Assembly: GCF_000260965.1 (NCBI RefSeq)
Contig: NC_017856.1
Span: forward strand, 540,001-572,000
Source of the DNA: Methylophaga frappieri
GTDB lineage: Bacteria; Pseudomonadota; Gammaproteobacteria; Nitrosococcales; Methylophagaceae
Length of the DNA stretch: 32,000 bases
Direction of reading: 5' to 3'
Below the pieces are notes generated by a model, which did no database searches, was not told where the DNA came from, and saw only the letters and a program-made list of their open reading frames with translations. Positions within the stretch are counted from its first letter, which is position 1, and each line of letters starts with the position of its first letter. Positions 3,716-26,080 of this stretch are shown here, one piece after another. A program made the translations under genes and the position numbers.

Positions 3716-4123
3716 TTATTTTTTATTATCGCCGTTAAGCGTAAATTCAATAATGTCTTTATGTTTGATGCGACGATGGGTCCCAACTCGATGAAAGGGA
3801 ATTTGACCGCTTTCAAGGAGCTTAATTAGAAATGGGCGTGAGACGTTAAGAACATCTGCAGCTTCTTGGGTTGTCAGTTCAGGTTGCTGTGGTATGACCT
3901 TGACTGAACTTCCATTGCTAATTTCATTTAACGCGTCTGCTAGAAGGCTAATAGCAATTGCGGGCAGTTGAATAATCTTCGGCTCTTCATCATTTCTTAT
4001 AACCTTGATTGAGTAGCTGGATACATTGTCACTTATCAGCTTGCGCAATACCTGTTTCCCTTTGTGTGCTAATTCGATGTCGCTAGCAGAGGGAGGGGAA
4101 TTGACGTTTTTATGTGTTGACAT
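3716..4123 (-). CDS. DNA-binding protein with C-terminal excisionase/MerR-type helix-turn-helix (antitoxin- or regulator-like)
   Basis: The C-terminus LTTQEAADVLNVSRPFLIKLLESGQIPFHRVGTHRRIKHKDIIEF matches the excisionase-family HTH pattern. GGAG lies 6 nt upstream of the ATG. Confidence 0.6.
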   Translation of the reverse strand: MSTHKNVNSPPSASDIELAHKGKQVLRKLISDNVSSYSIKVIRNDEEPKIIQLPAIAISLLADALNEISNGSSVKVIPQQPELTTQEAADVLNVSRPFLIKLLESGQIPFHRVGTHRRIKHKDIIEFTLNGDNKK

Positions 4124-4163
4124 ACTGGCTCCAATGACAAGGCAGAACTTGAGTAATCAATTT

Positions 4164-4186
4164 AAACGAAATAAACGAAATAAACA
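4164..4186. repeat. Tandem direct repeat AAACGAAAT x2.5 in the 244-aa/HTH intergenic region
   Basis: aaacgaaat (4164-4172), aaacgaaat (4173-4181) and aaaca (4182-4186), read directly. It lies about 40-60 nt upstream of the HTH gene start. Confidence 0.6.
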
Positions 4187-4212
4187 ATATATTCGAATCG
4201 TACATTGATACT

Positions 4213-4947: not shown

Positions 4948-5010
4948 GTTTGTTTCTCCTATTGGTTATCTTTTTTTCATTCTCCATGTTTTTTCAAATA
5001 TGCAAGGCGC

Positions 5011-7119: not shown

Positions 7120-8775
7120 TTACTGAATTAACAGTTGTTGTGTTACTTCGAATAACTCACGCTTCAGATCTTTGACGTCATTAATCACAATGCTTTGAGG
7201 AAAGAATTTCTCAACACTGCGTGTTTGAATCCCGATCCCCAGCAGCTCAAAGCCACTGCGTCTGCACCGGTCAACAATGTCATGCGTGGCAGCCCAATCA
7301 TCTGGGTCACCATCCGTTAGCACTATCATTAGCTTTCGCTTCTGTTTTTGTGCTAACAAACTGTTTGCCGCAAACCACATCGCTTGTGCCATAGGCGTAC
7401 AACCTCGTGGTTTTTGGTCAAAACAGGCGGCCCGATGTCGAACCGATTGCTTGGGCAATAACGCGATAGAAACTTCCTGATGAATACCAGGAAAATAACT
7501 GACCGCAGGTACAACACCCGGTATACCTTCCAATGCCATGGCCAAAGCCAAAGCGGCTTCATTGGCAACATGAAAGTACTTGCGATTACCTTCGCCAATG
7601 GGCTTACCCATTGAGCCCGATATATCGACAAGCAAGTGCACAGCAGCATTGGGCGCAATGCGAGGTTGCCTTTGAATAAACAATCTCGATTCACCTGCTT
7701 GTGAGGCGGCAAGACGATGGGTTGCAACTCGAAGACCGTGCCGTTTAGCATGATTCCGATTGTCCTGACTGGACTGAACCATGCCCCTAAGTCGGGCTCG
7801 AATTTGAGCCGACTCTGACGCCGATAAGGTCAAGATGGCCTCATCACCCAACATAGCTTGCTCTGCTTGGGGCAAACTGAGAGGTGTGACGCCCTGATGT
7901 CCTTCAGCTTGTTCCGACAACACTTCTGCCACTTGGGCAAAGGTATCGGGTTCAAACTGAGCGGCACTGGCCTCTAAGGCTTGTCGCAAATTGTCAGCTT
8001 GATCAGAGTTATCAGAATCACCCGTTTCAGCAGCATCCCCTGTTGCAGACAAACCTGTTTCCGGGGTTTGACTGTCACTACTGTTATTGCTGTCATTACT
8101 CGCATCTTGTCCAATGTCATTACCGCTATCAGCATCCGACTCATCCTGTGGTGGACGAGATTCTTCTTCCAACATGGCAACGATGGCATCGACAAGTTTT
8201 AGCACTTCACCTGTAGACGCCAGGCTAGGCACTGCTGTCAGCATGGCGCTTAACCGGCTCATCGCTGCGGCAGGAAAGAGTTGTCTCACTCTTTCATCGA
8301 CTGCTTGATACAAAGGCGTCAGCGCTTTCTGGCCCAGAAAATGGCATCTCAAGCGAAACAACAACCAGGCTTGCAAGTTAGATGCAGGCTCAAGCTGTTC
8401 AGGTACACACATTTGCTGTGTGTCCACCATGTACTCAATCACTTGCGAAATACTGCGCCGGGTTCCGGGGTAGTCCTTTGCCAATTCGTTTTCAATGCGA
8501 ACATCCTCAATAATATTGAGAAGTGCCTTACGGATCGGCTTGGTCGACGCCTTCTGCACCATGTCAAAATTGGTATGCCGAATATGCGCCGCTTCATGAG
8601 CCAGATAACCCCAAGCTATCTGTTGATAGTGTGGGTCGTCTGGGTTTGCTGTTGGGATCACAATCCGCTCACCATCTGTAAACGCATCTTGTCCTTGAAT
8701 AAGCACCTTCAAACCAAACTTTTCGCCATAAGCGGCGGCAACGATTGGCAGTGCATTTTTTAATGGATGATTCAT
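7120..8775 (-). CDS. vWA-domain protein with N-terminal HExxH metallopeptidase-like domain (CobT-like partner of the CobS-like ATPase)
   Basis: HExxH motif at YLAHEAAHIRH. An acidic S/D/N-rich linker follows (DESDADSGNDIGQDASNDSNNSSDS...). The C-terminal vWA domain carries a MIDAS motif, LLVDISGSM, and later MIVLTDGDPDD. Confidence 0.75.
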   Translation of the reverse strand: MNHPLKNALPIVAAAYGEKFGLKVLIQGQDAFTDGERIVIPTANPDDPHYQQIAWGYLAHEAAHIRHTNFDMVQKASTKPIRKALLNIIEDVRIENELAKDYPGTRRSISQVIEYMVDTQQMCVPEQLEPASNLQAWLLFRLRCHFLGQKALTPLYQAVDERVRQLFPAAAMSRLSAMLTAVPSLASTGEVLKLVDAIVAMLEEESRPPQDESDADSGNDIGQDASNDSNNSSDSQTPETGLSATGDAAETGDSDNSDQADNLRQALEASAAQFEPDTFAQVAEVLSEQAEGHQGVTPLSLPQAEQAMLGDEAILTLSASESAQIRARLRGMVQSSQDNRNHAKRHGLRVATHRLAASQAGESRLFIQRQPRIAPNAAVHLLVDISGSMGKPIGEGNRKYFHVANEAALALAMALEGIPGVVPAVSYFPGIHQEVSIALLPKQSVRHRAACFDQKPRGCTPMAQAMWFAANSLLAQKQKRKLMIVLTDGDPDDWAATHDIVDRCRRSGFELLGIGIQTRSVEKFFPQSIVINDVKDLKRELFEVTQQLLIQ

Positions 8776-12334: not shown

Positions 12335-13351
12335 TTAAAAGTAAAATGAGCTCGGCGAGTCACCTGGCAGAACCAAGATCTCTTGCTCAAGGCTGATTTT
12401 GATTGGTGTTTCAACGGGCTGCTCTGGCTTATTGGTGCTGATACGCAACCGCTCTTGTGGCGCTTTTCGGTAAGCAGCTAAAACCTGATCGTCCAGCTCG
12501 CCTAATTTATCGGTGGCCAATTGCTTATAGTCCACCGTACCCGCCATCATGTAGCGGCTGAGTTTGACCCCAGCATAATCGGCATGAGCGTAGTTACCCA
12601 TCATAGCGACCAATTTCGACTGAGCGTCTCGCATTTCTTCTTTCAAAGATTTGATGTGATTTTCCAGTCGGACCACTTCGGCATGTGCTGAGCAATACTG
12701 GCGAGACAACGATGTCCAGCGGTATTGAGCTTCACCCTTGGGAACAAAACAATCTTGCTCTGGGCATTTTGACGGTTCTTTTTTGGTCTGTACTAACTCC
12801 CAAAACTGAAGCGCTGTTTCTTGCAATTCAGTTAAGAACAATGCGTCTCGTTGTATTTCAAACTCAATCAGTTGATCCTCAAAATAGAAAACCAACCAAC
12901 CACGCGTGCTATTGGCGACCAGTATTTGATGCTGTACTTGCACCCAATACAACTGGTACGCCTCGCTTTGTTCTCGGTGAGCTTGCACATCCTCAAAAAC
13001 TGACTGGCAAGGACATTTCAGTTCAACGGGTTCGCCCGCATCGTTGATGCCATCAAAGCTGGCTCGAAAGATTGCGTTATGATCGGCTTCTGCACATAAC
13101 GGCAGAAGAAAGTCATTATGCGCATTCTCAAATGCTCGCCTTGCTTGAGGCTCCAACCTTATACCGCGAAGCACATTTGGATTATTCGACAGGTCTTCCG
13201 GTAATACGAATCCGGTTTTTTCTGCCCATAATCGCCAAGGTGTTTTGTAGGGTGAACGCCCCATAATAATTGGGGCTTCAGATGCCGTAACCCCTGCAAT
13301 GCGCCACTGGTGCCATGCAGGAGTACGCTGTGATAGGTCGATAACCTTCAT
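12335..13351 (-). CDS. exo: YqaJ/lambda-Exo-type alkaline exonuclease with ~140-aa C-terminal extension; ends in ...SPSSFYF
   Basis: The N-terminus QRTPAWHQWRIAGVTASEAPIIMGRSPYKTPWRLWAEKTG is the YqaJ signature. The gene follows bet, as in SXT and lambda Red. Confidence 0.8.
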   Translation of the reverse strand: MKVIDLSQRTPAWHQWRIAGVTASEAPIIMGRSPYKTPWRLWAEKTGFVLPEDLSNNPNVLRGIRLEPQARRAFENAHNDFLLPLCAEADHNAIFRASFDGINDAGEPVELKCPCQSVFEDVQAHREQSEAYQLYWVQVQHQILVANSTRGWLVFYFEDQLIEFEIQRDALFLTELQETALQFWELVQTKKEPSKCPEQDCFVPKGEAQYRWTSLSRQYCSAHAEVVRLENHIKSLKEEMRDAQSKLVAMMGNYAHADYAGVKLSRYMMAGTVDYKQLATDKLGELDDQVLAAYRKAPQERLRISTNKPEQPVETPIKISLEQEILVLPGDSPSSFYF

Positions 13352-13638: not shown

Positions 13639-14457
13639 CTAAGAAGCTAAAGGCTGTGTGAGCGCTTTGGCTGCTTGTTGCTGTGCATTAAATATTTCTT
13701 GTTTCGCAAACGTCAGTTCAACACCTTGAAAATGTTCATTGGCATATTCCAATGCACTATTCCAAGCGTTTGAAGCTTCCGCCCGCTCGATAAGCTTGTA
13801 AACAAGCCCTCGGGTTCGATCATCAACTTGCTCGGGTGGAATCACCGATGGCTCAACAACGTGTGTTGCTTGGCCTTCGATAATTCGCTCCGCTTCGTCT
13901 TGATCGAAAATTCCCACAAAGCCAAACGCAATGCGGGAACACTGGATCATGGATTTATGCCTTAGCATTCGCTTAGTGTGCGTCTGCCATGGACCATCCA
14001 CACGGTAAGGGCCATTTTTGCCGTTACCTTCAAAAGGCGGTCGATAGACTTCATCCAGGTACTCAGTGATTTTGACTGGGTGCGAACGGTCGCGCCGATA
14101 GATAATGCATTCCATCCATTCCGGGCATTCTTTCGCGCCATCCAGTGAGACTTTGGTTTCTGAAGTCTTGAACTCCATGCCATCAAACTGGTCGTGTTGA
14201 TTGATGATGCGAGACCATCCATCGACACCTACCACTGGAATAATTCCAGCTTGTTTATCAGGGAACGCAAAAATCTCTTTGGTGAAAGGGTTCAAGCCGT
14301 ACTGATCTGCAACCACCAAGAGCGCCATCATCTGCTCATTGGTCGGTGCACTACCGTCACGTTGCTTGAATGCTGTTGCTTTTAGGGTATCGAACAACTT
14401 GTTTGGATCGACACTAAAGCGCTCAGCAAAGCGTTGGATTAGCTTTGGTTTTTCCAT
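13639..14457 (-). CDS. bet: Lambda Bet-type single-strand annealing protein
   Basis: LLVVADQYGLNPFTKEIFAFPDKQAGIIPVVGVDGWSRIINQHDQFDGMEF and WQTHTKRMLRHKSMIQCSRIAFGF closely parallel lambda Bet as I remember it. The track start at 14472 is TTG. ATG 14457 (MEKPKLIQ) has GGAG 7 nt upstream. Confidence 0.85.
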   Translation of the reverse strand: MEKPKLIQRFAERFSVDPNKLFDTLKATAFKQRDGSAPTNEQMMALLVVADQYGLNPFTKEIFAFPDKQAGIIPVVGVDGWSRIINQHDQFDGMEFKTSETKVSLDGAKECPEWMECIIYRRDRSHPVKITEYLDEVYRPPFEGNGKNGPYRVDGPWQTHTKRMLRHKSMIQCSRIAFGFVGIFDQDEAERIIEGQATHVVEPSVIPPEQVDDRTRGLVYKLIERAEASNAWNSALEYANEHFQGVELTFAKQEIFNAQQQAAKALTQPLAS

Positions 14458-14520
14458 TGTGGACTCCGACAATCAAAGTGGGAGTCTGACCCTGACGGGA
14501 AAGTACTCCCGGCTGGGTTA
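14458..14520 (-). repeat. Intercistronic two-hairpin element (copy B), upstream of bet
   Basis: mRNA strand: AACCCAGCCGGGA-gtactt-TCCCGTCAGGG, then GACTCC-cactttgattgtc-GGAGTC-cacaATG. Confidence 0.7.
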
Positions 14521-14566: not shown

Positions 14567-14956
14567 TCAATTAGTTTGGGAGCCTGCATCATCCGCCGGT
14601 GATGGCTCAGATGCTCTGTTCACACTATCAAGAAGCAGAAACTCGTCCGCGTCCACTTCGGTCAATCGATGCTTAGTGCCATCTTTCTCCCATGATCGCG
14701 TGCGCTGAGGCCCTTGAACAAAAAGCTTCGCTCCTTTTTGGATCAAATCTTTTGCTCTTAGCCCTAACTTAAATCCACCACGATCTCGAAAAACAACCCG
14801 ATGCCATTCCGTATGCTCTTTGAGCTCATTGGATTGACGGTCGCGCCATTTCTCAGAAGTGGCCAGCGAAATGCTGGTCACCAAATCACCTGATGGATAG
14901 GCTCGCGTCTCTGGCTCAGCGCCAACGTAGCCTATGAGTGTTACTTGGTTTTTCAT
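14567..14956 (-). CDS. ssb: Single-stranded DNA-binding protein (129 aa) lacking the canonical acidic ...DDDIPF tip
   Basis: OB-fold signature: VTLIGYVGAEPETRAYPSGDLVTSISLATSEKWRDRQSNELKEHTEWHRVVF. SD GAGGAG precedes the start. The C-terminus is ...SPADDAGSQTN. Confidence 0.85.
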   Translation of the reverse strand: MKNQVTLIGYVGAEPETRAYPSGDLVTSISLATSEKWRDRQSNELKEHTEWHRVVFRDRGGFKLGLRAKDLIQKGAKLFVQGPQRTRSWEKDGTKHRLTEVDADEFLLLDSVNRASEPSPADDAGSQTN

Positions 14957-15298: not shown

Positions 15299-15367
15299 TG
15301 GTGACTCCTTAATTAGGTTGTGAAGGAGTCACCCCCAACTGGGGAAAACTCCCCCAGTTGGGTGGTG
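15299..15367 (-). repeat. Intercistronic/leader two-hairpin element (copy A, best-formed)
   Basis: mRNA strand: CACCACCCAACTGGGG-gagtttt-CCCCAGTTGGG (perfect 11 bp), then GGTGACTCCTT-cacaacctaatt-AAGGAGTCACC (perfect 11 bp), followed directly by AATG. Confidence 0.8.
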
Positions 15368-15665
15368 AAAAGGCGAACCGCAAGGAACGCATGGTTGCGC
15401 ATGTAAAAACATGCAGGCTATTTGTTTAAGGAGGCTAGCTACCTCTTAGTACCACTGAGAAAACTCAGCGGCGGGCTTCCTTTGAGCTCATGCTCTCAGG
15501 CGCAGATATCACTGAAACAGATCAGCAATATTTGATAGTCAGTGTAACCGTCTTATCCGGACAGGATAGTTAGAAAGATGCTCAATTCTTCCACCTAGCT
15601 GAAAGGCCATTACCTCACAGAGGATTAGGCTAGGGACTGATTATTGTCATATCAGGAGCAAACTT

Positions 15666-16268
15666 ATGGCCCAAGCAAAACCCAATTACTCAAAACCCAT
15701 CTTTGAACAATCATTCACAATTAATAGCTTACAGGCGCAACGTGTCGTTGACCGTGTTTTTAGACGGACGGTCAGTGCGCTTTACGGAATCGATGTCATC
15801 CTGCGCATCATTGGCGATGAGAACGAAATTGATGAAGTGGAACAGATCATTAGCCAGTTGATCGAGGATTGCGCTAAGGCGGTAGTCAACGAACAATCTC
15901 GTTTGGACAAATTGATGGAGTCCAACGGCATCGATGAAGTACCTGGCTACACCGACCCGATTACCTTCAACGCTAAAATCAGCTCGCCTCAGGTTGGCCA
16001 GTTTGTCGGCTTAGTGCGCAAACTCGATTCGTTGATGATCTCAATGGACACTCTCTGGTTGTCTAGCGTGCTTAGCAACAAGCAACGTGTTGATGGCAAC
16101 TACGCATGGCAACAGCGCATTATCAAACTTGCACGACGCATTATTGATATCGAAATTCGAGCACGAAAATCAGCCCAAGCTAAGGGTAAAGAAGCTGAAG
16201 TTGAGCAAGCGGTGCCTTCTACCGATGACGATATCACTGAAGAGGAAACAGATAACCCCGCCAACTAG
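15666..16268 (+). CDS. Hypothetical protein (200 aa) with acidic C-terminal tail, divergent from the s063-like operon; possible regulator
   Basis: SD AGGAG lies 7 nt before the ATG. The protein is predicted helical, and its tail is STDDDITEEETDNPAN. It vaguely resembles ICE/plasmid DUF1845/PFL_4669-type proteins, which I cannot verify. Confidence 0.55.
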   Translation: MAQAKPNYSKPIFEQSFTINSLQAQRVVDRVFRRTVSALYGIDVILRIIGDENEIDEVEQIISQLIEDCAKAVVNEQSRLDKLMESNGIDEVPGYTDPITFNAKISSPQVGQFVGLVRKLDSLMISMDTLWLSSVLSNKQRVDGNYAWQQRIIKLARRIIDIEIRARKSAQAKGKEAEVEQAVPSTDDDITEEETDNPAN

Positions 16269-16289
16269 CCAACTAGGCTCCCATCAACC

Positions 16290-16308
16290 AGCCCCTCTCG
16301 AAGGGGCT
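16290..16308 (+). terminator. Possible weak terminator hairpin after the 200-aa ORF
   Basis: AGCCCCT-ctcga-AGGGGCT lies 22 nt after the stop. The downstream T-tract is poor (CCTCAAAATTTGG). Confidence 0.3.
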
Positions 16309-16472
16309 CCTCAAAATTTGGTGTTGTGGGCTTTGAAACAATGGCTTCGTGTTTTATGCTCCTCATCACACTTATGGACAAAAGCTTCTTAGACTGGTCG
16401 CTCTATTTAGGCTAGTAAGCATTAGGAAAAGTAAGGGTAACGCCCGTATGAATCGACCGAGCTTTCCTAACC

Positions 16473-16495
16473 ACTTAATTGCTTAACAATTAAGT
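16473..16495. promoter_or_regulatory. Perfect 9-bp inverted repeat (ACTTAATTG-n5-CAATTAAGT), candidate operator upstream of the glycosyltransferase genes
   Basis: Read directly. It lies about 100 bp upstream of the GT2 start in an AT-rich 327-bp intergenic region. Confidence 0.35.
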
Positions 16496-16595
16496 ACAAA
16501 ACAGGCTTAAATACCCATTAATCCCAATGAGTTGCATCATATAGCCATCAAGTTGCTTATATTAATAAAGCCTATTAACCATCAATGACTCATTA

Positions 16596-17417
16596 ATGAA
16601 CAATATCATTGTATTAATTGCCACCACCCCTAGAGTGAACCTACTCACAGAGTTTGCTCTACCATCAATCCAGAGTCAGACACACCTACCAACTTCTGTC
16701 GTGCTTGTATCCGATAGCCGTGAGTTATACCAAAGTGAAATAGAACGTCTGCGTAAAAGGCTGCAAGGTATCCCCTTACATACATTAACCAATGCATTTT
16801 CACCAGGTGCTGCTGGTAGTTGGAATACTGGCATCAGCTATATCTCCAAGCATTTCCCTAGTAGCTACATTGCGATTATCGATGATGATGACACTTGGCA
16901 GCCTGAGCACCTACAAACTTGCTTGCGCCACAGCGATGCGAACAAAGCGGATGTCGTACTGTCCGGTATCAACGTCAACTTTGATCAAAGAACAGTGGCA
17001 ACTAACATACCCAACGAACTGACTGTTGATGACTTTCTAATTGGCAATCCGGGATGGCAAGGTTCAAACACCTTCATCAAGACCGAGTTGGCTTTCAAGG
17101 TAGGTGGGTTTACTGATGGCCTAGTGAGTAGCAACGACAAAGATTTTGCCATTCGGGTCTTAGAGTCCGGTTTAGCGACGATCCGTTATACCCATCTAGC
17201 GACAGTTAATTGGATGTGTAACCAGTCACCAGATGCACTTTCAGCACCGGGATCGAAGCAAAAGCTACAAGGATGTGCTCAATTTTTGCGATTACACGGA
17301 AACAAGATGTCTACTGGCACAATGGACCTTTATTTTCAGCGAGCTTTTGAGCTTTTTACTCTTACCAAGGAAGAGATCTTAAATGAACAAAAACGATTGG
17401 AGAGCATCAATGACTAG
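16596..17417 (+). CDS. Family 2 (GT-A fold) glycosyltransferase, 273 aa
   Basis: The N-terminus IIVLIATTPRVNLLTEFALPSIQSQTH...VVLVSDS fits GT2, as does the DxD-type motif AIIDDDDTW (16881..16892). Confidence 0.75.
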   Translation: MNNIIVLIATTPRVNLLTEFALPSIQSQTHLPTSVVLVSDSRELYQSEIERLRKRLQGIPLHTLTNAFSPGAAGSWNTGISYISKHFPSSYIAIIDDDDTWQPEHLQTCLRHSDANKADVVLSGINVNFDQRTVATNIPNELTVDDFLIGNPGWQGSNTFIKTELAFKVGGFTDGLVSSNDKDFAIRVLESGLATIRYTHLATVNWMCNQSPDALSAPGSKQKLQGCAQFLRLHGNKMSTGTMDLYFQRAFELFTLTKEEILNEQKRLESIND

Positions 17418-20400
17418 CTACAGTACCAGAGCTCCAAGCCAATATAGTGAGATTCTTTGCGACCGAAATGTAACGCTAGTTCACTCCTCTGCTGTTGAAT
17501 TTAAAAATGCCGAGGTGGTGATAGCAATTGCTCACAAAAACAAAGCACAAGCTTTATGTAATGCACTAAAAAGCTGCCTACAACAAAGTCTAGTGCAGCA
17601 GTGTATAGCACGCATCCTTGTACTAGATGATAGCTCTGATGCCGCTTGGTCTTCGGAAATAGAAGCGTTACTCCACCACCCAGCAGTAACGCTTTTAAAG
17701 GCAGAATGTGGCTATCCCGCAAGAGCTCGTAACCTTTTGCTCGATTGGGCAGACACGCAACCCAAACTACAATGGATTGCTCGACTCGATGCCGATGATG
17801 AATTATTCGCAACAAATAGCCTCGAAGGGCTCTGGCGTTCTGTTTGCGGTACACAGAAAAAAGCGGCAATCGGCAGCAATAAGTTACGAAAAGATGGACG
17901 AATTCTACCCAGCGACAATATTGCAAACGCCCAAGAGCTAACAGATCATTTCAATCTTGCTGGCTTTATCGAATATTTTGCCTCCGGTAAGCAACAACGA
18001 GAGCTCCCTTCATGTAATTTACTGTTGAGAACTCAGCTGGGCATTAGGTACCCCAATATCCGAAGTGCGGAAGATCACTGGTTAGTGACCAGACTTTTGA
18101 TGTTGCACCCCAATGACGTAGCGGTCTGTCCTTACCCTATCTATGCCATTTATTCGCTTGATGGTGACGATACCAAGCAAAACAAATCCAATCTGGCTTG
18201 GCGAGATCAGAGAAACCGATTGGCGTATGTCGCAAGAACTTGGAGCACACTACTTTCAACCAACCGATATATACTCGGAATTGGTATGGAAGGGGCTGTC
18301 TGGCTACAACACAACCAAGTTTATAAAGAGTTCTATCCCTGGGCGATCACCGACATCGAAGTGCAAGATCTGAGGTCTTTACTTGCTGATAAAGATGTTC
18401 CTATCCCAAAGTTAACATGGAGGAAGTGTGACGGGTTATGGCAATACAATACTGCCTACGAGAGCAGTACGCCGCCCGGATATAAAATCGATGAACAAGT
18501 GATTGTTAACTATCTAACAAAGCTATATCAAGCAGGTATAAGCACGCTTAACATCAAACGAGATAATCTTATCATCACTCCCAAGGGCGAGCTTCAGTAC
18601 ATTGATGTTGGCAAAGACATAAGGCCACTAACCTCGTCATACTTTCGTGACATGTGTGCACGTCTGTACTCGATTGGCATATTGGGCAACAGTGATGAGG
18701 AACTGGTCCGTAGAAAGAGTTGGCGCCGACAGGATGATGCATTAAAAGCCCTTCCGGGGTTTGAGCAATTCTACAACAAGCTAATAGTTCAACTTCATCC
18801 ACAATGTATCGAGCTTAGTAGTCCCCCTCTCCCTAAAGCATCTTTCAAAAGCAAAGCTGTGACCCTAATGATCAAGGCCTGTGGACAAGATGCCAAGGTA
18901 TTCACTGAGCAAGTAGCGCATATCGTTACGCAGCTTAGCTACCCAGTGACTTTTGCTAAAGTCATACTACTCATAGACCCGTATCAAGGGGAGTTTCTGC
19001 GCCAATATGCAAAGGCAAATCTAGCGTCAGTCATTGAGCAGGCTGAAACCCTAAAAGAGCAAGGGCTGATTGACACGATACTTATAGCCCCTTCAGAGCC
19101 AAGCATTATAATGGCGACATACGAAAAGTGGTTCGGTCATAAAGGATGTACAGAAACACATACTCCGAAAAATGCGCCTCTTTTCCCACAAGTTTGGGGA
19201 TTTGACCAAGTGGAAACCACTTACGTACTACAATGTGACTTGGATGTACTGGTTGGTCGCCGGAACTGGCAACATGATTATATCGCCGACATGATTTATG
19301 CCTGTGAGCCAAAAGATGTGTTGGCTGTTGGTTTCAATATCCCCAAAAGCAGTCCTTGCTTTAATCCTTACCATGGTTCCCCTGGTGAATTTGCACCAGA
19401 GGTTCGATTTGGCCTGCTAGATCTGCGCAGAATAAAGGATCAGCTACCGATAGATAATCCACCAGCAGGAAATAGACTCACCTTAACTTGGCACCGGGCA
19501 CTACAGGCCGCAATGAAACAGCGTGGTTTACGAGCGCTACGAGGTGGCGATCCTCAAAGTTACTATGTTCACCCTAGCAATGAGCACAAACATTTACTGG
19601 AGCTTTCGGTTGCACGAGATTTGATTGCACAGGGAGTCGAGCCAAGAGAGCAACACGAGCAGTTTGATTGGGTGCCAGGTACACACTGGAAATACCAACA
19701 GCGGCATGAACCGATTGTGTTTCTTCTAAAAGGCAAACTTACCGAGCACACCTTACTCAAGCGATGCCTAGATTCATTGCGAAGCCAAACTAATCAAAAC
19801 TTTGGCGTGATCCTTATTGATGATGCTAGTGGCGCAGTGCATAACTGGTGCTATCCAATGTTGTTGGATGAGCTCCAGAGCAAAACAACCTTGATAAGGC
19901 ACTGCGTAAACCAAGGCAGAATGCCCAACTTCCTGCTGGCCATCAATGAGATCTGCCAAGATCCCAACACCTTGGTAGCAGTGCTAGATCAAGACGACTG
20001 CTTAATGCAAACCTGTATTGTAGACGCTTTGCTTGCGGCCAAGCAGCAAGGCGCAGATCTCATTCAAATGCCGATGTTTCGCCCGAATAAGCCACTCAAC
20101 TTATATCGTCCTGATTACACTCACCCGAGGCTCGCTGGTGGCGCCAATGTATGGAGCCATCTCAGGGTATTTACCAAAGCGCTCTTTGAACAAGTTCCCG
20201 AAGATTACTTCAAGCGCGCAGACCACTCGGACTGGTTTAATATCGTCACCGACTACGTAACCATGTTACCCATGGCTGAACTGGCAAAGAAGTCTGTTTA
20301 CCTAGACTCCGGTTATGCATACTGGCACCTGCGCCAAAACTCTAGTCATGACAATAGACAGCAAGAAGACAAGTTGATAAGTGAACTACTTTCTAAGCCT

Positions 20401-20463
20401 TCTCTGTTAACGAAAGAAGATAGGTTTGCTGAACAGACGCCAGTATCTTCTGAAGGCGATTGA
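17383..20463 (+). CDS. 1026-aa multidomain protein: GT2, protein-kinase-like fold, GT-A-like domain, GT2
   Basis: Domain 1: VVIAIAHKN...ILVLDDSSD...RLDADDELF (DxD at 17788..17799), SAEDHW. Middle domain: catalytic-loop-like NIKRDNLII (18550..18576) and DFG-like YIDVGKD (18601..18618). Domain 3: LQCDLDVLV (19237..19245). Domain 4: IVFLLKGK...SLRSQTNQNFGVILIDDASG...VAVLDQDDCL (19987..19998). An alternative start is ATG 17410 (GGAGA SD), which overlaps the upstream stop. Confidence 0.7.
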   Translation: MNKNDWRASMTSYSTRAPSQYSEILCDRNVTLVHSSAVEFKNAEVVIAIAHKNKAQALCNALKSCLQQSLVQQCIARILVLDDSSDAAWSSEIEALLHHPAVTLLKAECGYPARARNLLLDWADTQPKLQWIARLDADDELFATNSLEGLWRSVCGTQKKAAIGSNKLRKDGRILPSDNIANAQELTDHFNLAGFIEYFASGKQQRELPSCNLLLRTQLGIRYPNIRSAEDHWLVTRLLMLHPNDVAVCPYPIYAIYSLDGDDTKQNKSNLAWRDQRNRLAYVARTWSTLLSTNRYILGIGMEGAVWLQHNQVYKEFYPWAITDIEVQDLRSLLADKDVPIPKLTWRKCDGLWQYNTAYESSTPPGYKIDEQVIVNYLTKLYQAGISTLNIKRDNLIITPKGELQYIDVGKDIRPLTSSYFRDMCARLYSIGILGNSDEELVRRKSWRRQDDALKALPGFEQFYNKLIVQLHPQCIELSSPPLPKASFKSKAVTLMIKACGQDAKVFTEQVAHIVTQLSYPVTFAKVILLIDPYQGEFLRQYAKANLASVIEQAETLKEQGLIDTILIAPSEPSIIMATYEKWFGHKGCTETHTPKNAPLFPQVWGFDQVETTYVLQCDLDVLVGRRNWQHDYIADMIYACEPKDVLAVGFNIPKSSPCFNPYHGSPGEFAPEVRFGLLDLRRIKDQLPIDNPPAGNRLTLTWHRALQAAMKQRGLRALRGGDPQSYYVHPSNEHKHLLELSVARDLIAQGVEPREQHEQFDWVPGTHWKYQQRHEPIVFLLKGKLTEHTLLKRCLDSLRSQTNQNFGVILIDDASGAVHNWCYPMLLDELQSKTTLIRHCVNQGRMPNFLLAINEICQDPNTLVAVLDQDDCLMQTCIVDALLAAKQQGADLIQMPMFRPNKPLNLYRPDYTHPRLAGGANVWSHLRVFTKALFEQVPEDYFKRADHSDWFNIVTDYVTMLPMAELAKKSVYLDSGYAYWHLRQNSSHDNRQQEDKLISELLSKPSLLTKEDRFAEQTPVSSEGD

Positions 20464-21160
20464 CGTAAAGTGACGCTTGGTTGTCATACATCCACCAATT
20501 TGGAGAAAACTGACTGTCCCTTGAGGCATAGAACAGTGGCTCAATTGCCTGTATATTCTCATAATTCGCTTGATCGAGCCACGTGTGATAACCAACCTTT
20601 GAAAGATCTTCCCACAAGTAGCTTGCTTCTTTACGAGATAAGCTTGGTAGTTGTTGCAAGAGATGAAAACAGTCTTGACTAGCCATTGCGCATGATTTGC
20701 TAGGGCGTTGAGACTGCAATAGCAATTCCGGCCAATCAACCTTATCTTTCCAAGATAGGGCTAAACGCCTCTCTCCCAACCAATTGTGATAGGCCGCTGG
20801 CAGTGCTTTCTTGTTAGAGTGGTCTGGTGTCCTTTCTAATGAAGGTAGCAAAGCCATACAGCTAACACGTACATCGACCTGGTATCCGAGCATCGTCTGA
20901 ATGGCTAGTAGCCCTAGCGAAGGCTTACATCCCAGCGCTTCTTCTAGTTTTCTACTGTTAGTGTCCAGTTTTTCAATGAACTGCTCAGGTACTTCGCCTT
21001 GGACAAGAAATCCTCTTTTAAGGCCTGCCTGTTTACTATTTGTAATTGTTACATCGGTACCAGGTTTGAACGATGCTGGTTGATTGAATCTGATGATTCT
21101 CTCGTTATCAACTATGATCAGTTTCCCCGGACCATTACCAACAATATGCCATATGCTCAA
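20393..21160 (-). CDS. Hypothetical protein (255 aa) with CstII/GT42-like (or DUF115/Maf-like) N-terminal nucleotide-sugar-binding motifs
   Basis: WHIVGNGPGK...IIRFNQP...PSLGLLAIQTMLGY parallels IIAGNGPSL...VFRCNQ...TSG..AVAIALGY of Campylobacter CstII as I remember it. The start is TTG, since an in-frame TAA lies immediately upstream. It sits 24 nt after the radical SAM gene stop. Confidence 0.4.
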   Translation of the reverse strand: MSIWHIVGNGPGKLIIVDNERIIRFNQPASFKPGTDVTITNSKQAGLKRGFLVQGEVPEQFIEKLDTNSRKLEEALGCKPSLGLLAIQTMLGYQVDVRVSCMALLPSLERTPDHSNKKALPAAYHNWLGERRLALSWKDKVDWPELLLQSQRPSKSCAMASQDCFHLLQQLPSLSRKEASYLWEDLSKVGYHTWLDQANYENIQAIEPLFYASRDSQFSPNWWMYDNQASLYVNRLQKILASVQQTYLLSLTEKA

Positions 21161-21184
21161 TTACTCACCCCTGCTCAAATAGCC

Positions 21185-22066
21185 TTATTGGTGCCTGTCA
21201 GACTTCCAATCTCGGTAAATCTTCTTCCAGGTCATTGAAGTCTGCTGTACCAATATTTTTGGACGGAGCTTCGGTGGCACATAGTGCCCGTCTCTGAACC
21301 GACCACACAATCCACAAGCACTCTTCATGAGATCACGCATTTCGTCATCACCTGATGGTAAACGCTGCCGTCCATTTTTTTGATTTAACACTCGATCAAT
21401 ACCACCACCAACAGCGCATGGATAATACCCTTGAGGTGTAAGACCCAATCCACAAGTGCGAGCAATATCGCAGCCGTTAGAATAGTCACTAAACTTGTGG
21501 TACCAACTATCAACAGGCGCCAGATTAAATGGGCCAAAATCGGGCTGAATGGAGTCTGTTTTTGCTGAGTTCTCGATAGACAACCAATCAGGAAGCTTAG
21601 AAATGACCGTATTCACACGGCGCCCATATCCATTTGTCACTAGTTGAATGCATAAGTCAGGCTGAGCTATTTTAAGGCGATGCAACTCTGATAGGATTTC
21701 ATTCAACTCAGGGTGTAGCGTTGGTTCTCCACCGAGAATACGAATTTTCCTCCAACTTCGATGCTGACATAGGCTATCCTCGACAAACTGAGATATTTCC
21801 TCTAATCCTATGTGTTTTTTATCCGGTGCTTGAGCGGATGAGCGATTGCAATTATTGCACTTCAAATTACATTGGTATGTGATATCTATTTCTAACAGAT
21901 CATCAGCCGCTTGATATTGGTACCCCATCAACCTAGTTACAGGCTTCTGCACGCGAAACCATCGCCACAGAGCCTTCAGTTGAAACCAAAACTTAGCGAA
22001 GCGAACCCATTTTTTGGGATAATCGTGTGAATAGATAAAGGGCTCCATGCTATTTCTTAACGCCAT
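21185..22066 (-). CDS. Radical SAM protein (293 aa) with Cys-rich C-terminal region (possible auxiliary Fe-S / SPASM-twitch-like)
   Basis: CX3CX2C motif in ITYQCNLKCNNCNR (21848..21871), plus ILGGEPTLHPEL. C-terminal cysteines occur at NGCDIARTCGLG...YYPCAVGG...KSACGLCGRF. The N-terminus has an aromatic/basic amphipathic stretch, WVRFAKFWFQLKALWRWFRV. Confidence 0.7.
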   Translation of the reverse strand: MALRNSMEPFIYSHDYPKKWVRFAKFWFQLKALWRWFRVQKPVTRLMGYQYQAADDLLEIDITYQCNLKCNNCNRSSAQAPDKKHIGLEEISQFVEDSLCQHRSWRKIRILGGEPTLHPELNEILSELHRLKIAQPDLCIQLVTNGYGRRVNTVISKLPDWLSIENSAKTDSIQPDFGPFNLAPVDSWYHKFSDYSNGCDIARTCGLGLTPQGYYPCAVGGGIDRVLNQKNGRQRLPSGDDEMRDLMKSACGLCGRFRDGHYVPPKLRPKILVQQTSMTWKKIYRDWKSDRHQ

Positions 22067-22387
22067 TAGTTGCTTTTCCTTGGCTCGTTACTAATTGAAG
22101 TTGGAATTCGATACTCGAACGCATAGTGTACCGATTTAGAAAAATAAGATCATAAAAGTAGTGTTATAGGGTGCTAGTGAAGCACTCCATGCCACCGATT
22201 AGATTGAGTAGGTCAAACTACAATGCTGTCATTTTTGAGGTAAAGCATCGCTGGCTCACAATGGGGCAAAAGCGCGTTAGCTGAAGTGCAATCACAAAGT
22301 GCCAAATTGGTTACCTTAAGGCAAATTATGCTCATTAAAGTAACCAAAATGAAACATTATTGGCTCAGCTATTTTAGAAGGATATGC

Positions 22388-25300
22388 TCAATTATTACCC
22401 GAAATTTCTTCCGTCGCCTCCTGACGCAGTTTCTGGGTATCCATTCCGTTTAGCCGGTCAATGGTTCTGTCTGCGGCACTTTGACGGTTTCCATCCACGT
22501 TTAGCGTACTTCCTGAGCCTGTGAGTCGTTCCAGATCCAGTGACGGTACTTCGGGTAGGTTGCCTGTTATCGATAAGATACCTATCCATTCATCCAGATT
22601 GACTTGGCTCCAATCCACCTGGTTTAACTGACTCGCGGTCAAACCTTCACAGTTTGGAGACTTCGCACTGCCCCAGCCAAGGCCCAATTGCGGACGTACT
22701 TGCTCCTGAATGATCCGTGAAAGCGGCGAAGTAAAGCAGCAATATGATTGCCGCTTCTCAACACAGGCTCCTAAGAACTTAGACTTGCAATAAGAGCCTA
22801 TATAGTGGCAACTCTTCAATACCCGCTTGGCGTTCATTTCAAACTCACTCTGCTCACATTTCCAGATAAGCTGAATGAGGATCATGGTGACTGAATAAAT
22901 CATGTAGGCCGTCATAACCGTACTCAGAACCGCGCCCGCAGCGCCCCCCAGCGCAAAGTTACCGCCCGAAACGACACCATCGGCTCCAACCGCGCCACCA
23001 ACGTTGCTAAACAGTGCCGATTGCGCCCCCGAACCAAAGGTCGTACCTACCCATTCAGCCGTTTTGTTGGTCAACACCTGCATGAAGCCAGTCGCAGCTT
23101 GCTCCGCTCCCGCGCCAGCAGCCGTTGATGGCCCAGCCCCCATGAGAGAGTCCCATGCAGACACAAAAGGCTCTTTGACCGCACTCCAAGTGCTCGTGAT
23201 TGGCTCCCTGAGCGTATTCCAGGAACCATAGATTGCCGAAGACGGATTCATGGCCATGACTGCCGTATCAAGCTTGTTGACCGCCACAATCATTGTGATG
23301 TAATCCGATAACGACACGCCACTTGGCTTTTCACAGCAATCCACTATGCCGCCAACGGCTTTTTTGCACTGGCCAGCATTACCTTTAAAGACCGTACACT
23401 CGACGTTGTCTTGGCCATCAGCGCCCGTGCATGACATATCATTGGTCATAAACTGCGCCGCATTAAGCATCGCAGCGGCCTCTGCAAAGTTAGCCTGCTT
23501 GATTGACTCTGGCTCTAAACAATCTGTGCCCATACAGCGAACTGGCCCCTCACAGTTGTATTGAGTTTCCATTCGTGCATTTTGCACTTCAACGCTTTGT
23601 CCGCAGTCATACACCAGACTTTGGATATAGCAGAAGCCTTCATGACCAGCCCCGCCTTCAGTGCATTCGGTTCTGACATACTGGCAGGCCGGGTTTTGCT
23701 CTAGCGCGGCACACGTATTGGTGGTCGTGTTTTGTCCGTTATTAACGATGGTTTGTGTATTACCATTGGCATCTACCCAGCTATCTGAGCTGCCCATGTT
23801 GAACTCTGGATGAGCAGTCGAAGCATTGTAGGTTGCTCTTGCCCTCCAGCATGAGAGTCCCAGTCCATCAGAGCTGCCGCGACTGGTTAAATGAGCAGGA
23901 GACGAAACAACCGCTGGATAAAGGCTCCCAAGATTGGCCAACTCGCCACTACCAACCGTTAACCCGTCGATTCGTTTTGTGCCCGTATCCAAACACTGCC
24001 ACTGCACCGCAGTAAACTGATCCGTTTGCATCAAGCATTGGTCTATGCTCGGATCACTTGATTGATGAACAATGTCTTGCTCTAAGAACTTGCCGGAGAA
24101 TGTCAAGGAAGCGCTCAGTTTCGCAGGAGCCAAACACTTCTGAACTTCTCGGCTGCAAGTATCGAAATCGACTTTGTTCCAGCCAGACTCACATCTGGAA
24201 CGAGTGACTTCCTGAGGTTCATGCCACGAAATAATAGACCCATTGACGACTTTACAGAATGAGCCAACCAAGGTTCCTTTTGGACAGGTCATTTCAGGGT
24301 ACTTAATGGACGGTTTCGTCTCAGTCACAGTTTCCTCATTGCCCGTCAGAGAGAGTGTCGTTTTCCAACCATTTACCTTGGATGGCGACTCGGTGATTTT
24401 TATCTCAGTATTTTGATTATCAAAAATCCTCAGCGTCGCGTATCCAGTTTGCATGGTACTGCTGTGCTGTGGAACAAAGCTGAGCGTTTCAGAGCTAAAG
24501 CAACCGCGCTCAATGAACCAGCTTTGTTGATGGGTTTCAGCGGATACACGTCGCTCTAACTGACACTCAGTAAGCGTGCTGATCTTCTCGCAAACTTGGT
24601 AATCCGGTACATGCTTGGTTTCAGTAAATGGCGTAATCGTCTGAGTAGGCTCACAGGCCTCAAAACTACTTGGTATAAGGTTGGATACCACACACTTTGG
24701 ATCGCTGGTTTGCAATCCACAGTCATAGGTATCGGTAAAACGAATGCATTCACCTTTATCATTGGTCTCGGCACATTCTGACGACATGAATCCACAGGAA
24801 GGATTCGCTTCAAGCACTTGGCAGGCCTGATTTTCAATCCCCTTATAGCTTTCATCATCCACACTCACTTGTACACGCCGACACAAAGGCGATATGCCAG
24901 CCACAGGGCTTGGGCCAAAATAGGATTCACAAACTGAAACACCATTGACCACCGTACATCCGTTGGTTGAAGACGTCTGATCCGTGCATTGAATGCTGTA
25001 GTCTGAAAACATCGTCGGGATATCCGCTGCTTGTTCAATACAGGATTGTGGCGACCAACTATCATTCATCACCACCTTGGTTGGATCAAAGCGCACCTTG
25101 ATGCGTGCATAACCCTCACCACTACCCGTAACCGATACGCGAATTTTGACTGGCACTTCTAAACCTGGCTCTACCGCTTTTAGCTTGGCGGTGAGGTCAG
25201 TATTAGGATTGCGTTCCCAACTGGTACTAAGCTCGCAGCGACCTGCCGTTTCTGGTGGAAAGTTATTGTTCGGCCCAGACCAGACTTTCTGATCGCCAAG

Positions 25301-26080
25301 CCACACCTGCATGTAGTCATCCCATTTGGCGTACTCAAGAACGGCTGAGGTAATCGCATCGGGGTTCACGACTTTGAGTGTGATGGCCTGTTCAAACACT
25401 TTACAACGGCCACTCCAGTAGTTGTCGCCTATTCGTCCAATCCAAACTTCAAGACATCCCTCACCACAAGAGCGAAGGTTCATTGGTCCTGAAACATGCT
25501 CAATAATGCCTGCCGTGTAATCGTGAGTAATAGTGCAGCTGTTAACCGCTGTATTGAGCCTGTCACATTGCTGGTAGTTTGGGCTGCCTTCACCTTGAGA
25601 CTCACAGCCTGGGAAGCTTTGCGTTAATAGATTTGGGTCAGTTTGAACCGCATCGGTTAATGCCCAAAGCGGATCATTGACCATATCTGGCCGAGACCTG
25701 TCTTTGATTTGCTGGAGCGAGCGAAACGCCTCACCCGTAGCGCCATTTTCGGATGCCATGCTCTCTTGGCGCTGCGTCCCCAATTGATTCATACTGGCAT
25801 CAGAGCCATAAACGCCCGTTAAGACATCCAATGAGCCCTGATCCATACCAGGGAAAAGCTCTTGCAAGTTAATCGTCTCATTACCACTGCCATTCGGCAC
25901 CGACAATGTATTGCCATTGAGTGCGGGCATCGCCCAGTTTTGCAGCAATTGCTTACCTTCTTGTTGTCCGCTTAAGCCGGATTGGCGCTGCACATCAGCG
26001 GCCACACCATGTAAGGGCAAGCACGCCATAGTGATTGATAAAACACCCGCTAAAACTCGGGTAAAAAGTGTTGGTTTCAT
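22388..26080 (-). CDS. traN: Conjugative mating-pair stabilisation protein TraN (1230 aa, Cys-rich)
   Basis: It has a signal peptide, many conserved Cys residues, and the C-terminal hallmark KKAVGGIVDCCEKPSG...CCFTSPLSRIIQEQ. SD GGGAGG precedes the ATG at 26080. It follows traU. Confidence 0.85.
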   Translation of the reverse strand: MKPTLFTRVLAGVLSITMACLPLHGVAADVQRQSGLSGQQEGKQLLQNWAMPALNGNTLSVPNGSGNETINLQELFPGMDQGSLDVLTGVYGSDASMNQLGTQRQESMASENGATGEAFRSLQQIKDRSRPDMVNDPLWALTDAVQTDPNLLTQSFPGCESQGEGSPNYQQCDRLNTAVNSCTITHDYTAGIIEHVSGPMNLRSCGEGCLEVWIGRIGDNYWSGRCKVFEQAITLKVVNPDAITSAVLEYAKWDDYMQVWLGDQKVWSGPNNNFPPETAGRCELSTSWERNPNTDLTAKLKAVEPGLEVPVKIRVSVTGSGEGYARIKVRFDPTKVVMNDSWSPQSCIEQAADIPTMFSDYSIQCTDQTSSTNGCTVVNGVSVCESYFGPSPVAGISPLCRRVQVSVDDESYKGIENQACQVLEANPSCGFMSSECAETNDKGECIRFTDTYDCGLQTSDPKCVVSNLIPSSFEACEPTQTITPFTETKHVPDYQVCEKISTLTECQLERRVSAETHQQSWFIERGCFSSETLSFVPQHSSTMQTGYATLRIFDNQNTEIKITESPSKVNGWKTTLSLTGNEETVTETKPSIKYPEMTCPKGTLVGSFCKVVNGSIISWHEPQEVTRSRCESGWNKVDFDTCSREVQKCLAPAKLSASLTFSGKFLEQDIVHQSSDPSIDQCLMQTDQFTAVQWQCLDTGTKRIDGLTVGSGELANLGSLYPAVVSSPAHLTSRGSSDGLGLSCWRARATYNASTAHPEFNMGSSDSWVDANGNTQTIVNNGQNTTTNTCAALEQNPACQYVRTECTEGGAGHEGFCYIQSLVYDCGQSVEVQNARMETQYNCEGPVRCMGTDCLEPESIKQANFAEAAAMLNAAQFMTNDMSCTGADGQDNVECTVFKGNAGQCKKAVGGIVDCCEKPSGVSLSDYITMIVAVNKLDTAVMAMNPSSAIYGSWNTLREPITSTWSAVKEPFVSAWDSLMGAGPSTAAGAGAEQAATGFMQVLTNKTAEWVGTTFGSGAQSALFSNVGGAVGADGVVSGGNFALGGAAGAVLSTVMTAYMIYSVTMILIQLIWKCEQSEFEMNAKRVLKSCHYIGSYCKSKFLGACVEKRQSYCCFTSPLSRIIQEQVRPQLGLGWGSAKSPNCEGLTASQLNQVDWSQVNLDEWIGILSITGNLPEVPSLDLERLTGSGSTLNVDGNRQSAADRTIDRLNGMDTQKLRQEATEEISGNN

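Follow-up and report, generated by a model that had tools for sequence, protein, structure and literature searches.

The 32,000-nucleotide stretch of Methylophaga frappieri DNA analyzed here (contig NC_017856.1, positions 540,001 to 572,000; "the window", to which all coordinates given without a locus number refer) holds a four-gene cassette lodged in hotspot 4 of what is, judged from its sequence, an SXT/R391-type integrative conjugative element (ICE) backbone. We infer that the cassette is a self-contained, horizontally mobile unit encoding soluble cytoplasmic glycosylation machinery. Three of its genes, encoding a small family-2 glycosyltransferase (GT2), a large four-domain protein and a protein of 255 amino acids (aa), form a core, and the fourth, encoding a radical S-adenosylmethionine (SAM) enzyme, is accessory. 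The segment and its features are as follows.

16314..22389, no strand: hotspot-4 variable segment of the ICE, bounded by breaks in homology to R997, which carries unrelated cargo at the same junction
16377..22265, no strand: the mobile unit of four genes, together with upstream DNA of the first gene (about 220 bases) and of the radical SAM gene (about 200 bases)
16596..17417, plus strand: small GT2, 273 aa, core gene 1 (PF00535, E 7e-12, 46 bits)
17410..20463, plus strand: large four-domain protein, core gene 2, 1017 aa from its probable start, in an open reading frame (ORF) that opens at 17383
17410..18258, plus strand: large protein domain 1, about aa 1-283, GT2 (PDB profile matches to GalT1, K4CP and SpsA at residues 35-250)
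18259..18834, plus strand: large protein domain 2, about aa 284-475, protein-kinase-like, probably a pseudokinase (weak PDB profile matches)
18835..19713, plus strand: large protein domain 3, about aa 476-768, GT-A-like beta-alpha-beta domain with an invariant QCDxD motif (AlphaFold secondary structure and motif)
19714..20463, plus strand: large protein domain 4, about aa 769-1017, GT2 (PF00535, best stretch at residues 791-923)
20393..21160, minus strand: 255-aa protein, core gene 3, with an N-terminal nucleotide-sugar-transferase-like domain and a helical C-terminal half (weak fold matches)
21185..22066, minus strand: radical SAM enzyme, 293 aa, accessory gene (PF04055, 42 bits against a cut-off of 29.5)

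The 5.9-kb cassette is almost the same in two very different settings: positions 16377..22265 are 98.8% identical over 5889 bases to a chromosomal, non-ICE locus in Vibrio (L038, 8968-14848), and the unit therefore moves en bloc. Its distribution was surveyed in 34 genome loci, with about a dozen more added through exact-protein look-ups, covering alpha-, beta- and gammaproteobacteria. The core trio appears in a fixed order (small GT2, then the large protein, then the convergent 255-aa gene) in 33-35 loci, and the small GT2 lies directly upstream of the large gene in 34. All-against-all clustering of 590 flanking ORFs yielded a tyrosine integrase (8 loci) as the sole recurrent family beyond the cassette; the flanks are otherwise unrelated, and the hosts found belong to three classes of Proteobacteria only. 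The cassette was also seen as Tn7 cargo, beside integrases and beside insertion sequence (IS) elements. More than 200 full-length homologs of the large protein, with 43-99% identity, come from Vibrio, Photobacterium, Shewanella, Marinobacter, Pseudoalteromonas, Thiomicrorhabdus, Zoogloea, Aquitalea and other genera, and the cassette genes are annotated in their sources just as "glycosyltransferase", "hypothetical protein" or "radical SAM protein". Such generic annotations would suit functionless hitch-hiking cargo, the remnant of a polysaccharide locus, but this explanation is largely refuted by the survey and is very improbable: all reading frames are intact, gene order and catalytic motifs are invariant, mean column identity remains at 57-65% over deep divergence, and the cassette occupies dozens of unrelated sites without polysaccharide genes. 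In the window the last 71 bases of the large gene (20393-20463) are shared with the 3' end of the convergent 255-aa gene. A comparable overlap of about 45-110 bases was noted in many gammaproteobacterial loci (among them L001, L003, L042, L044, L045 and L046), with little or none in some others. At two loci, L030 (4249-9939, a Zoogloea metagenome-assembled genome) and L031 (2556-9866, Comamonas suwonensis), five or six ORFs separate the small GT2 from a large gene that is truncated at its N-terminus, and the cassette appears to be disrupted there.

The limits of the insert in the window were set by comparison with a sister ICE, R997 (L048). The backbone match to R997 ends at 16313, with 97.7% identity over 4314 bases, and restarts at 22390, just beyond the traN stop codon (last base in gene orientation 22388); the insert is therefore taken to be 16314-22389. 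The backbone features on its two sides are the following.

22388-26080, minus strand: traN, a backbone gene forming one edge of the hotspot (NCBIfam PRK14876, 989 bits, E 1.5e-297)
15666..16268, plus strand: 200-aa backbone ORF bounding the hotspot, outside the cassette, near-identical in other ICEs
14567-14956, minus strand: ssb, on the ssb-bet-exo operon side of the hotspot
13639-14472, minus strand: RecT/bet gene
12335-13351, minus strand: YqaJ/exo gene

These gene identities and the R997 break confirm the placement between traN and the ssb side given by an earlier, sequence-only reading of this DNA, and the insert qualifies as hotspot-4 cargo: it is variable, with traN on one side and, on the other, the conserved ORF that lies upstream of the ssb-bet-exo operon. 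The same reading had counted the 200-aa ORF as cargo and as a putative regulator of the cluster. This assignment was rejected: the DNA at 15300-16340 is 96-98% identical in other SXT/R391 elements of Proteus and Vibrio, R997 carries the same ORF beside different cargo, and searches of Pfam, NCBIfam and PHROGs gave it no domain, leaving an ICE backbone ORF without a DNA-binding domain. Promoter and terminator scans of the insert came out below chance expectation. The R997 hotspot cargo (L048, 10198-18003) includes cadR, a cation transporter, lspA, an ISL3 transposase and an endonuclease. Beside traN, the R997 hotspot carries a DUF87 and SIR2 gene pair resembling a SIR2-HerA-type defense pair.

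Pfam places both the small GT2 and the large protein in the GT2 family, with PF00535 scores above gathering and DxD motifs in each. In the small GT2 this motif is a DDDD (DxD-type) stretch at residues 96-99; in the large protein PF00535 matches at both ends (76 bits, two stretches). The start of the large gene is probably at 17410, giving an 8-base overlap with the end of the GT2 gene, because its homologs are about 1017 aa long. The AlphaFold model of the large protein has a mean predicted confidence (pLDDT) of 89.8, and Foldseek comparison against the PDB is led by two-domain GT-A polymerases, the Escherichia coli K4 chondroitin polymerase K4CP (E 1.5e-14) and then the Pasteurella heparosan synthase PmHS2, these top matches spanning E 1e-14 to 1e-10, followed by RmlT, TarP, AvpGT, LARGE1 and SpsA. 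This whole-protein comparison is dominated by GT-A matches, does not report the aligned domain and says nothing on domains 2 and 3. Domain 1 contains the invariant motifs LDADDE and SAEDHW. Domain 4, with profile matches at residues 782-877 to the TagF N-domain and others, contains the invariant motifs IDDAS and LDQDD. Domain 3 has no Pfam or PDB sequence match at E values up to 10, is the most conserved part of the large protein (65% mean column identity), and from its modeled structure may be assigned to the GT-A type. The DxD motifs are intact in all three GT-A-type domains of the large protein (D127/D129, D610/D612 and D860/D862) and in the small GT2. The GT2 and radical SAM genes named in the sequence-only reading (PF00535, E 7e-12; PF04055) thus stand, and its description of the large protein as a GT2-kinase-like-GT-A-GT2 fusion holds at the two GT2 ends through PF00535. 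The GT-A part is suggested by the model and the QCDxD motif; the kinase-like part is weak, and the length is probably about 1017 rather than 1026 aa.

K4CP and PmHS2 resemble the large protein in that each is one soluble chain with at least two GT-A/GT2 domains bearing DxD motifs. Sequence identity between them and the large protein is 9-13%, and the large protein differs in having an extra kinase-like domain and a DxD domain belonging to no family. Enzymes of the K4CP/PmHS2 type sit in group-2 capsule loci together with KpsMTED export and Kdo-linker genes (Kdo, 3-deoxy-D-manno-octulosonic acid). In contrast to these capsule loci, the surveyed cassette loci contain no export or linker gene.

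Profile comparison of domain 2 with the PDB returned Ser/Thr kinases almost exclusively, all weakly (best E 0.014-0.058; MELK, E 0.058), and a Pfam scan of this domain gave nothing usable. In the alignment, HRDLKPEN of the kinases corresponds to LNIKRDN and DFG to IDIG. Invariant residues include the glycine-rich loop GxGxEG, Lys306, Lys383, Asn386 and Asp399, and the position of the catalytic Asp is occupied by the nearly invariant Asn381. All residues that would mark an active kinase of the eukaryotic protein kinase type are therefore kept except the catalytic Asp, in a fold assignment that is itself weak (E 0.058). In a distant homolog, P0384, the NxKxxN pattern is retained and the neighboring Asp is lost. 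Because the catalytic Asp is replaced by Asn, also in the distant homolog, domain 2 is read as probably a pseudokinase or an atypical nucleotide-binding domain, and not a sugar or protein kinase; the active kinase considered earlier is not supported. ErbB3-type pseudokinases and the RNase L switch show the same pattern, with the Gly-rich loop, the beta-3 Lys, the Lys and Asn of the catalytic loop and the DFG-type Asp kept and the catalytic Asp changed to Asn. Domain 2 differs from these in its weak profile alignment (E 0.058), its small size (about 190 aa) and its position between glycosyltransferase domains, and nucleotide binding by it is only predicted.

The third core protein, of 255 aa, has few relatives, its family comprising just 116 clusters in a set of 1.84 billion representatives, and has no match in Pfam, NCBIfam, PADLOC or PDB sequence searches. 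Its structural model (pLDDT 90.3) gave weak Foldseek matches in the PDB, among which the sialyltransferases CstII and CstI (GT42) fill 10 of the first 50 places (E 0.6-3.6, TM 0.23-0.30), ranks 1, 3 and 4 among them (E 0.6-0.8, TM 0.26-0.30); in BFVD, a GT29 sialyltransferase ranks second (E 0.07, probability 0.91). GT42 and GT29 enzymes are the only consistent fold matches of the N-terminal half, and they are weak (E 0.07-3.6, TM about 0.3). The CstII/GT42-like identity proposed from the sequence thus has these weak fold matches behind it and no sequence support. The strings GNGPG and RFNQ in the protein are presumably motif-like with respect to GT42 and GT29. Taken together, the matches point weakly to a fold of the cytidine monophosphate (CMP)-sugar-type transferases in the N-terminal half. 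For the helical C-terminal half there is no structural match, nor any counterpart in the GT42 and GT29 sialyltransferases.

Two rare fusion proteins connect the members of the trio. P0384 (1035 aa) matches domains 2-4 of the large protein with an hhalign probability of 100%, but where the first GT2 domain would be it has the N-domain of the 255-aa protein. P0374 (954 aa) combines the 255-aa N-domain (probability 98.7%) with a small-GT2 copy (34% identity, E 3e-36). Because of these fusions and the invariant gene order, there is good evidence that the three core proteins are one functional unit, and the replacement seen in P0384 suggests that the 255-aa N-domain is itself a transferase module able to take the place of a GT2 domain. 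In all, the soluble set is predicted to have four or five sugar-transferase modules whose metal-binding motifs are intact. P0374 is part of a distant variant on a metagenome contig (L047, 6075-17575), which also encodes an 1129-aa methyltransferase-GT2-SLOG protein (LDcluster4/DprA-like), a GalE-like epimerase and a 1357-aa protein without a match. ORFs upstream of this variant look phage-like, with weak PHROG matches only.

The radical SAM enzyme carries both the CxxxCxxC motif and PF04055, with C66, C70, C73 and the GGEPTLHP stretch invariant. Five further invariant cysteines (C199, C205, C217, C251 and C254) suggest an auxiliary cluster; no SPASM or twitch model reached its cut-off, and the PDB matches span the core of the enzyme only. 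Although first taken as part of the core, the gene is accessory, being found in 14 of the 34 loci, where it always adjoins the core at one of two places: behind the 255-aa gene, facing either way, or upstream of the small GT2. Three of three radical SAM homologs that were looked up independently lie within the same cassette. The protein is basic in all 14 copies (isoelectric point 8.9-10.0, median 9.2) and its partners are acidic or neutral; isoelectric points otherwise give no clear hint. Two candidate identities were rejected. Viperin (pVip) model NF038283 scores 31.5 bits against a cut-off of 180 and covers the N-terminal cluster-binding part only, with a weak PADLOC pVip match to the radical SAM core (E 2.7e-10, residues 60-148), and MoaA-like models score far under their cut-offs.

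The features of this enzyme raise the possibility that the cassette makes a small glycosylated metabolite, such as a modified nucleoside, a glycolipid or a compatible solute, serving as a chemical defense, a signal or a stress protectant. The cysteine pattern of the putative auxiliary cluster is like that of sugar- and nucleotide-tailoring enzymes, the weak viperin- and MoaA-like matches lie in the radical SAM core only, and the large protein shares a fold likeness with the nucleoside glycosyltransferase AvpGT. The radical SAM gene is however dispensable in about 60% of loci, the viperin score falls far below its cut-off, no scaffold-forming, export or self-resistance gene is present, and the defense-island setting described below is atypical of metabolite clusters; a metabolite product is accordingly considered improbable.

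No cassette protein contains a transmembrane segment or a hydrophobic stretch compatible with a membrane helix, and the insert holds no exporter, initiating transferase or sugar-nucleotide gene, in line with what had been noted from the sequence. Across the survey, a protein with at least four predicted transmembrane segments occurs within five genes of the core in only 6 of 34 loci, and none of these proteins is conserved. The combination of an initiating phosphoglycosyl transferase, export functions (Wzx/Wzy, an ABC transporter or a membrane synthase) and dedicated sugar-nucleotide genes that would mark a self-contained capsule, O-antigen or exopolysaccharide locus was not found, and because exporter genes do not adjoin the cassette in the other genomes surveyed it is not a fragment of an ordinary polysaccharide locus. 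The 34-locus survey, in which only the trio, the radical SAM gene and the integrase recur, upholds the earlier statement that the cluster is not a self-contained locus of this kind, and the pattern that would have refuted the sequence-only reading, exporters next to the cassette elsewhere, did not appear. The absence of sugar-nucleotide genes is true of the window but not of the cassette in general: a GalE-like NAD-dependent epimerase adjoins the core in 5 of 34 loci (four in Vibrionaceae, and L026), the distant fused variant has one as well, and a single locus carries a UDP-glucose dehydrogenase-like ORF (UDP, uridine diphosphate) near the core, with no other sugar-related neighbors. That some loci bring their own GalE-like epimerase makes UDP-hexose donors likely, and suggests that these are donors that some hosts lack.

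An envelope function nevertheless has to be weighed. Here the soluble enzymes would work at the inner membrane, on its cytoplasmic side, and decorate an existing lipid-linked acceptor such as lipid A-Kdo/core, an ABC-transporter-type O-polysaccharide or a Kdo-lipid primer. Host MsbA/Lpt or polysaccharide exporters would then carry the product outward, altering phage receptors or mating-pair contacts. The best fold matches (K4CP, PmHS2, TarP, RmlT and SpsA) build or decorate envelope polymers, and the mixture of glycosyltransferase, kinase-like and sialyl- or Kdo-transferase-like genes resembles, as is generally understood, the exporter-free lipopolysaccharide (LPS)-core (waa) sets. The restriction to Proteobacteria, the GalE-like and UDP-glucose dehydrogenase-like neighbors, and the location of the insert next to traN, whose product touches the recipient surface, fit as well. 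Set against these points, the core is highly conserved across hosts with presumably different outer cores and O-antigens, the surveyed loci show no linkage to polysaccharide genes or conserved membrane proteins, and the cassette is absent from phages, the usual home of receptor-modifying modules. The kinase-like domain lacks the catalytic Asp that LPS kinases keep, and translational coupling to hsdR and BrxR-type regulation, described below, are typical of intracellular systems. On balance envelope glycan remodeling is possible rather than probable. If it were true, the cassette would be the first portable, exporter-independent surface-remodeling kit found across proteobacterial classes.

Like the cassette, prophage TarP and the GtrABC module are glycosyltransferase cargo of mobile elements, drawing sugar nucleotides from the host and acting on an acceptor that is already there. 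TarP however acts as a single enzyme and Gtr modules include polytopic membrane proteins, both phage-borne, whereas the cassette encodes three to four soluble proteins, none of them found in phages. The marks of GtrABC seroconversion (a membrane GtrA flippase, GtrB and GtrC, and a prophage site) were not seen. No relative of the large protein was detected in 50,697 phage genomes by tblastn or in the IMG/VR viral contigs, and this absence argues against a prophage-style seroconversion module.

The phage result also bears on an analogy drawn in the sequence-only reading, with the pathways of thymidine hypermodification in phage DNA. Phage thymidine and cytosine hypermodification draws on the same broad enzyme classes as the cassette (kinase, transferase and radical SAM enzyme). 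The cassette differs in that its kinase-like domain is probably inactive, no hydroxymethylase or base-modifying partner accompanies it, phage relatives are absent and the radical SAM enzyme is optional. The kinases of the phage pathways are P-loop kinases and the fold in the cassette is protein-kinase-like instead. Neither phage homologs nor a recurrent partner that would hydroxymethylate or activate a base was found, and the analogy was dropped. In a wider form, sugar modification of the DNA or RNA of the element or its host could provide anti-restriction or an epigenetic mark. The occurrence of the cassette within restriction-modification operons, the basic radical SAM protein (14 of 14 copies, pI about 9.2) and the ability of GT-A/GT2 folds to act on nucleosides, with AvpGT among the fold matches, are consistent with such a role. 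It is made unlikely by the lack of any DNA-binding, base-flipping, base-oxidizing or hydroxymethylating partner and of a cognate nuclease in the core, by the absence of phage relatives, by a kinase fold unlike that of the phage P-loop kinases and apparently catalytically dead, and by the methylase that the flanking type I systems already possess.

The genomic setting of the cassette points elsewhere. In Marinobacter (L008, L009), Shewanella (L011, L013, L039/40, L046) and Nitrincola (L044) it lies between hsdR and hsdM/hsdS of type I restriction operons; L011 is a short contig on which only the hsdR side is visible. These hsd-embedded loci do not group together in a neighbor-joining tree of the large protein: they occupy at least four separate branches, with other contexts in between. 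The hsdR stop codon abuts the start of the small GT2 in L044 (9199), overlaps it in L046 (9187-9190), and abuts or overlaps it in L039 (3331-3338), suggesting from the arrangement of the genes that hsdR and the cassette are co-transcribed and translationally coupled. In L039 a SoFic-type Fic gene follows between the cassette and hsdM. In L044 (14786-16404) hsdM is called as two overlapping ORFs, a 163-aa HsdM_N and a 397-aa N6_Mtase protein, which may reflect a frameshift or a sequencing error. Further contexts are listed here.

Neptuniibacter, L042: integrase, cassette, hsdR/M/S and SIR2
Methylovulum, L041: cassette with CRISPR-Cas I-E on one side and a UvrD helicase on the other
Marinobacter, L003: Tn7-like cargo with a KAP NTPase and DUF499
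Vibrio parahaemolyticus, L045: island holding SRA-HNH, NUDIX and integrases, with a BrxR-type WYL regulator (7855-8715) immediately upstream of the cassette
Thiomicrorhabdus, L001: integrase island, also with a type I restriction subunit
Salinivibrio, L043: IS elements

The chromosomal copies in Vibrionaceae have a WYL/BrxR-type regulator just upstream (L004, 6863-8844; L006; L035; L045), and in L004, L006 and L035 the GalE-like epimerase stands between regulator and cassette; the ICE copy in the window has neither gene. A pooled PADLOC scan of the two nearest neighbors on each side returned type I restriction, BrxL, WYL and type IV restriction models. By neighbor listing, the cassette thus sits recurrently in or beside known defense systems in unrelated genomes. 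Embedding in type I restriction operons has been a successful criterion for defense discovery (bioRxiv 10.1101/2024.01.29.577857), and TgvAB, embedded in such an operon, was shown to be a defense system (PMC11411939). Like the cassette, PrrC and the TgvAB pair of V. cholerae VPI-2 lie between hsd genes and are apparently co-transcribed with them (PMC11411939). They differ in their products: PrrC is an anticodon nuclease and TgvAB a GmrSD-like type IV enzyme, and the cassette encodes no nuclease, helicase or ATPase domain. The defense role that had been raised from hotspot location is now backed by context, namely the hsd embedding, BrxR/WYL regulators, SRA-HNH, CRISPR-Cas I-E, SIR2 and Tn7 cargo, and the SIR2 and DUF87 pair in R997.

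The reading we favor, and hold tentatively, is that the cassette is a mobile determinant of defense against phages or mobile elements which complements restriction, acting as a soluble glycosylation machine most likely on an intracellular target. The trio would act as one complex using host nucleotide sugars, and would attach either a short hetero-oligosaccharide or a chain of repeats to some target not encoded by the cassette. The donors would likely be UDP-hexoses, and a CMP-activated sugar is possible for the sialyltransferase-like 255-aa protein; the acceptor would be either universal in Proteobacteria or brought by the invader. The kinase-like domain, which keeps its nucleotide- and metal-binding residues, may serve as a nucleotide-binding switch or scaffold and not as a phosphotransferase, and the optional radical SAM enzyme may tailor the sugar or the acceptor. 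The target during infection could be the DNA of the invader or a protein, either from the phage or an essential one of the host, an exported surface polymer being less likely. An intracellular target is favored because coupling to hsdR is kept over deep divergence, BrxR-type regulators are present, and the cassette is never phage-borne. A more specific form of the proposal, for which we claim rather less, is a glycosyltransferase assembly line gated by the pseudokinase, which might defend by intracellular action or by draining nucleotide sugars, coupled to type I restriction and spread by ICEs, Tn7-like elements and integrase islands.

Several points weigh against this defense reading. The functional evidence is association throughout, several loci (e.g., L038) have no recognizable defense neighbor, and the hsdR-linked loci may stem from few ancestral events and so not be fully independent. 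That the hosts are confined to Proteobacteria would be explained just as well if the cassette required a Gram-negative envelope acceptor or CMP-Kdo, and its closest structural relatives (K4CP, PmHS2, TarP and RmlT) are without exception enzymes of envelope glycopolymers. If DNA or a protein is to be marked, five transferase modules seem too many, and the acceptor is not among the products of the cassette. No PADLOC-DB v2.0.0 model matches the GT2, the large protein or the 255-aa protein, and from scans of all five ORFs with PADLOC, NCBIfam and Pfam came generic GT2 and radical SAM matches only.

Literature searches combining SXT hotspot 4 with glycosyltransferase, and defense with glycosyltransferase, radical SAM and type I restriction, found no description of the cassette, and two papers on systematic defense discovery, bioRxiv 10.1101/2024.01.29.577857 among them, do not mention glycosyltransferases. 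The enzyme superfamilies in the cassette are ordinary, and two modules, the 255-aa family and domain 3, belong to no family. Taken as a system, the cassette is new in our reading: it corresponds to no polysaccharide locus or seroconversion module on record, nor to a known DNA-modification pathway or a catalogued defense system, and its role is read from context. To our knowledge, no intracellular anti-phage system described so far has a glycosyltransferase as its effector; if the cassette defends, sugar transfer would be added to the known chemistries of bacterial immunity. A defensive role would also explain a glycosylation module within type I restriction operons and give a function to two unannotated families, the 255-aa family and the central DxD domain. 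SXT/R391 elements spread drug resistance in Vibrio cholerae and Proteus, and hotspot 4 would then be, like hotspot 5, a site of phage-resistance cargo shaping the dynamics between phages and pathogens.

Outside the hotspot, the window to the left of exo carries genes for an AAA_5 ATPase, DUF3150 and VWA proteins, RadC and a primase-like protein. In positions 1-4950 the GC content falls to about 0.40, and this is probably a second variable region of the ICE. It contains a 496-aa ORF with ESPR and two-partner secretion (TPS) domains (1317-2807, plus strand), a 284-aa ORF (2800-3654, minus strand) in which DUF4145 is followed by only the start of a PIF1/AAA_30 helicase and which looks truncated, and a gene for a 135-aa HTH_17 protein (3716-4123, minus strand).

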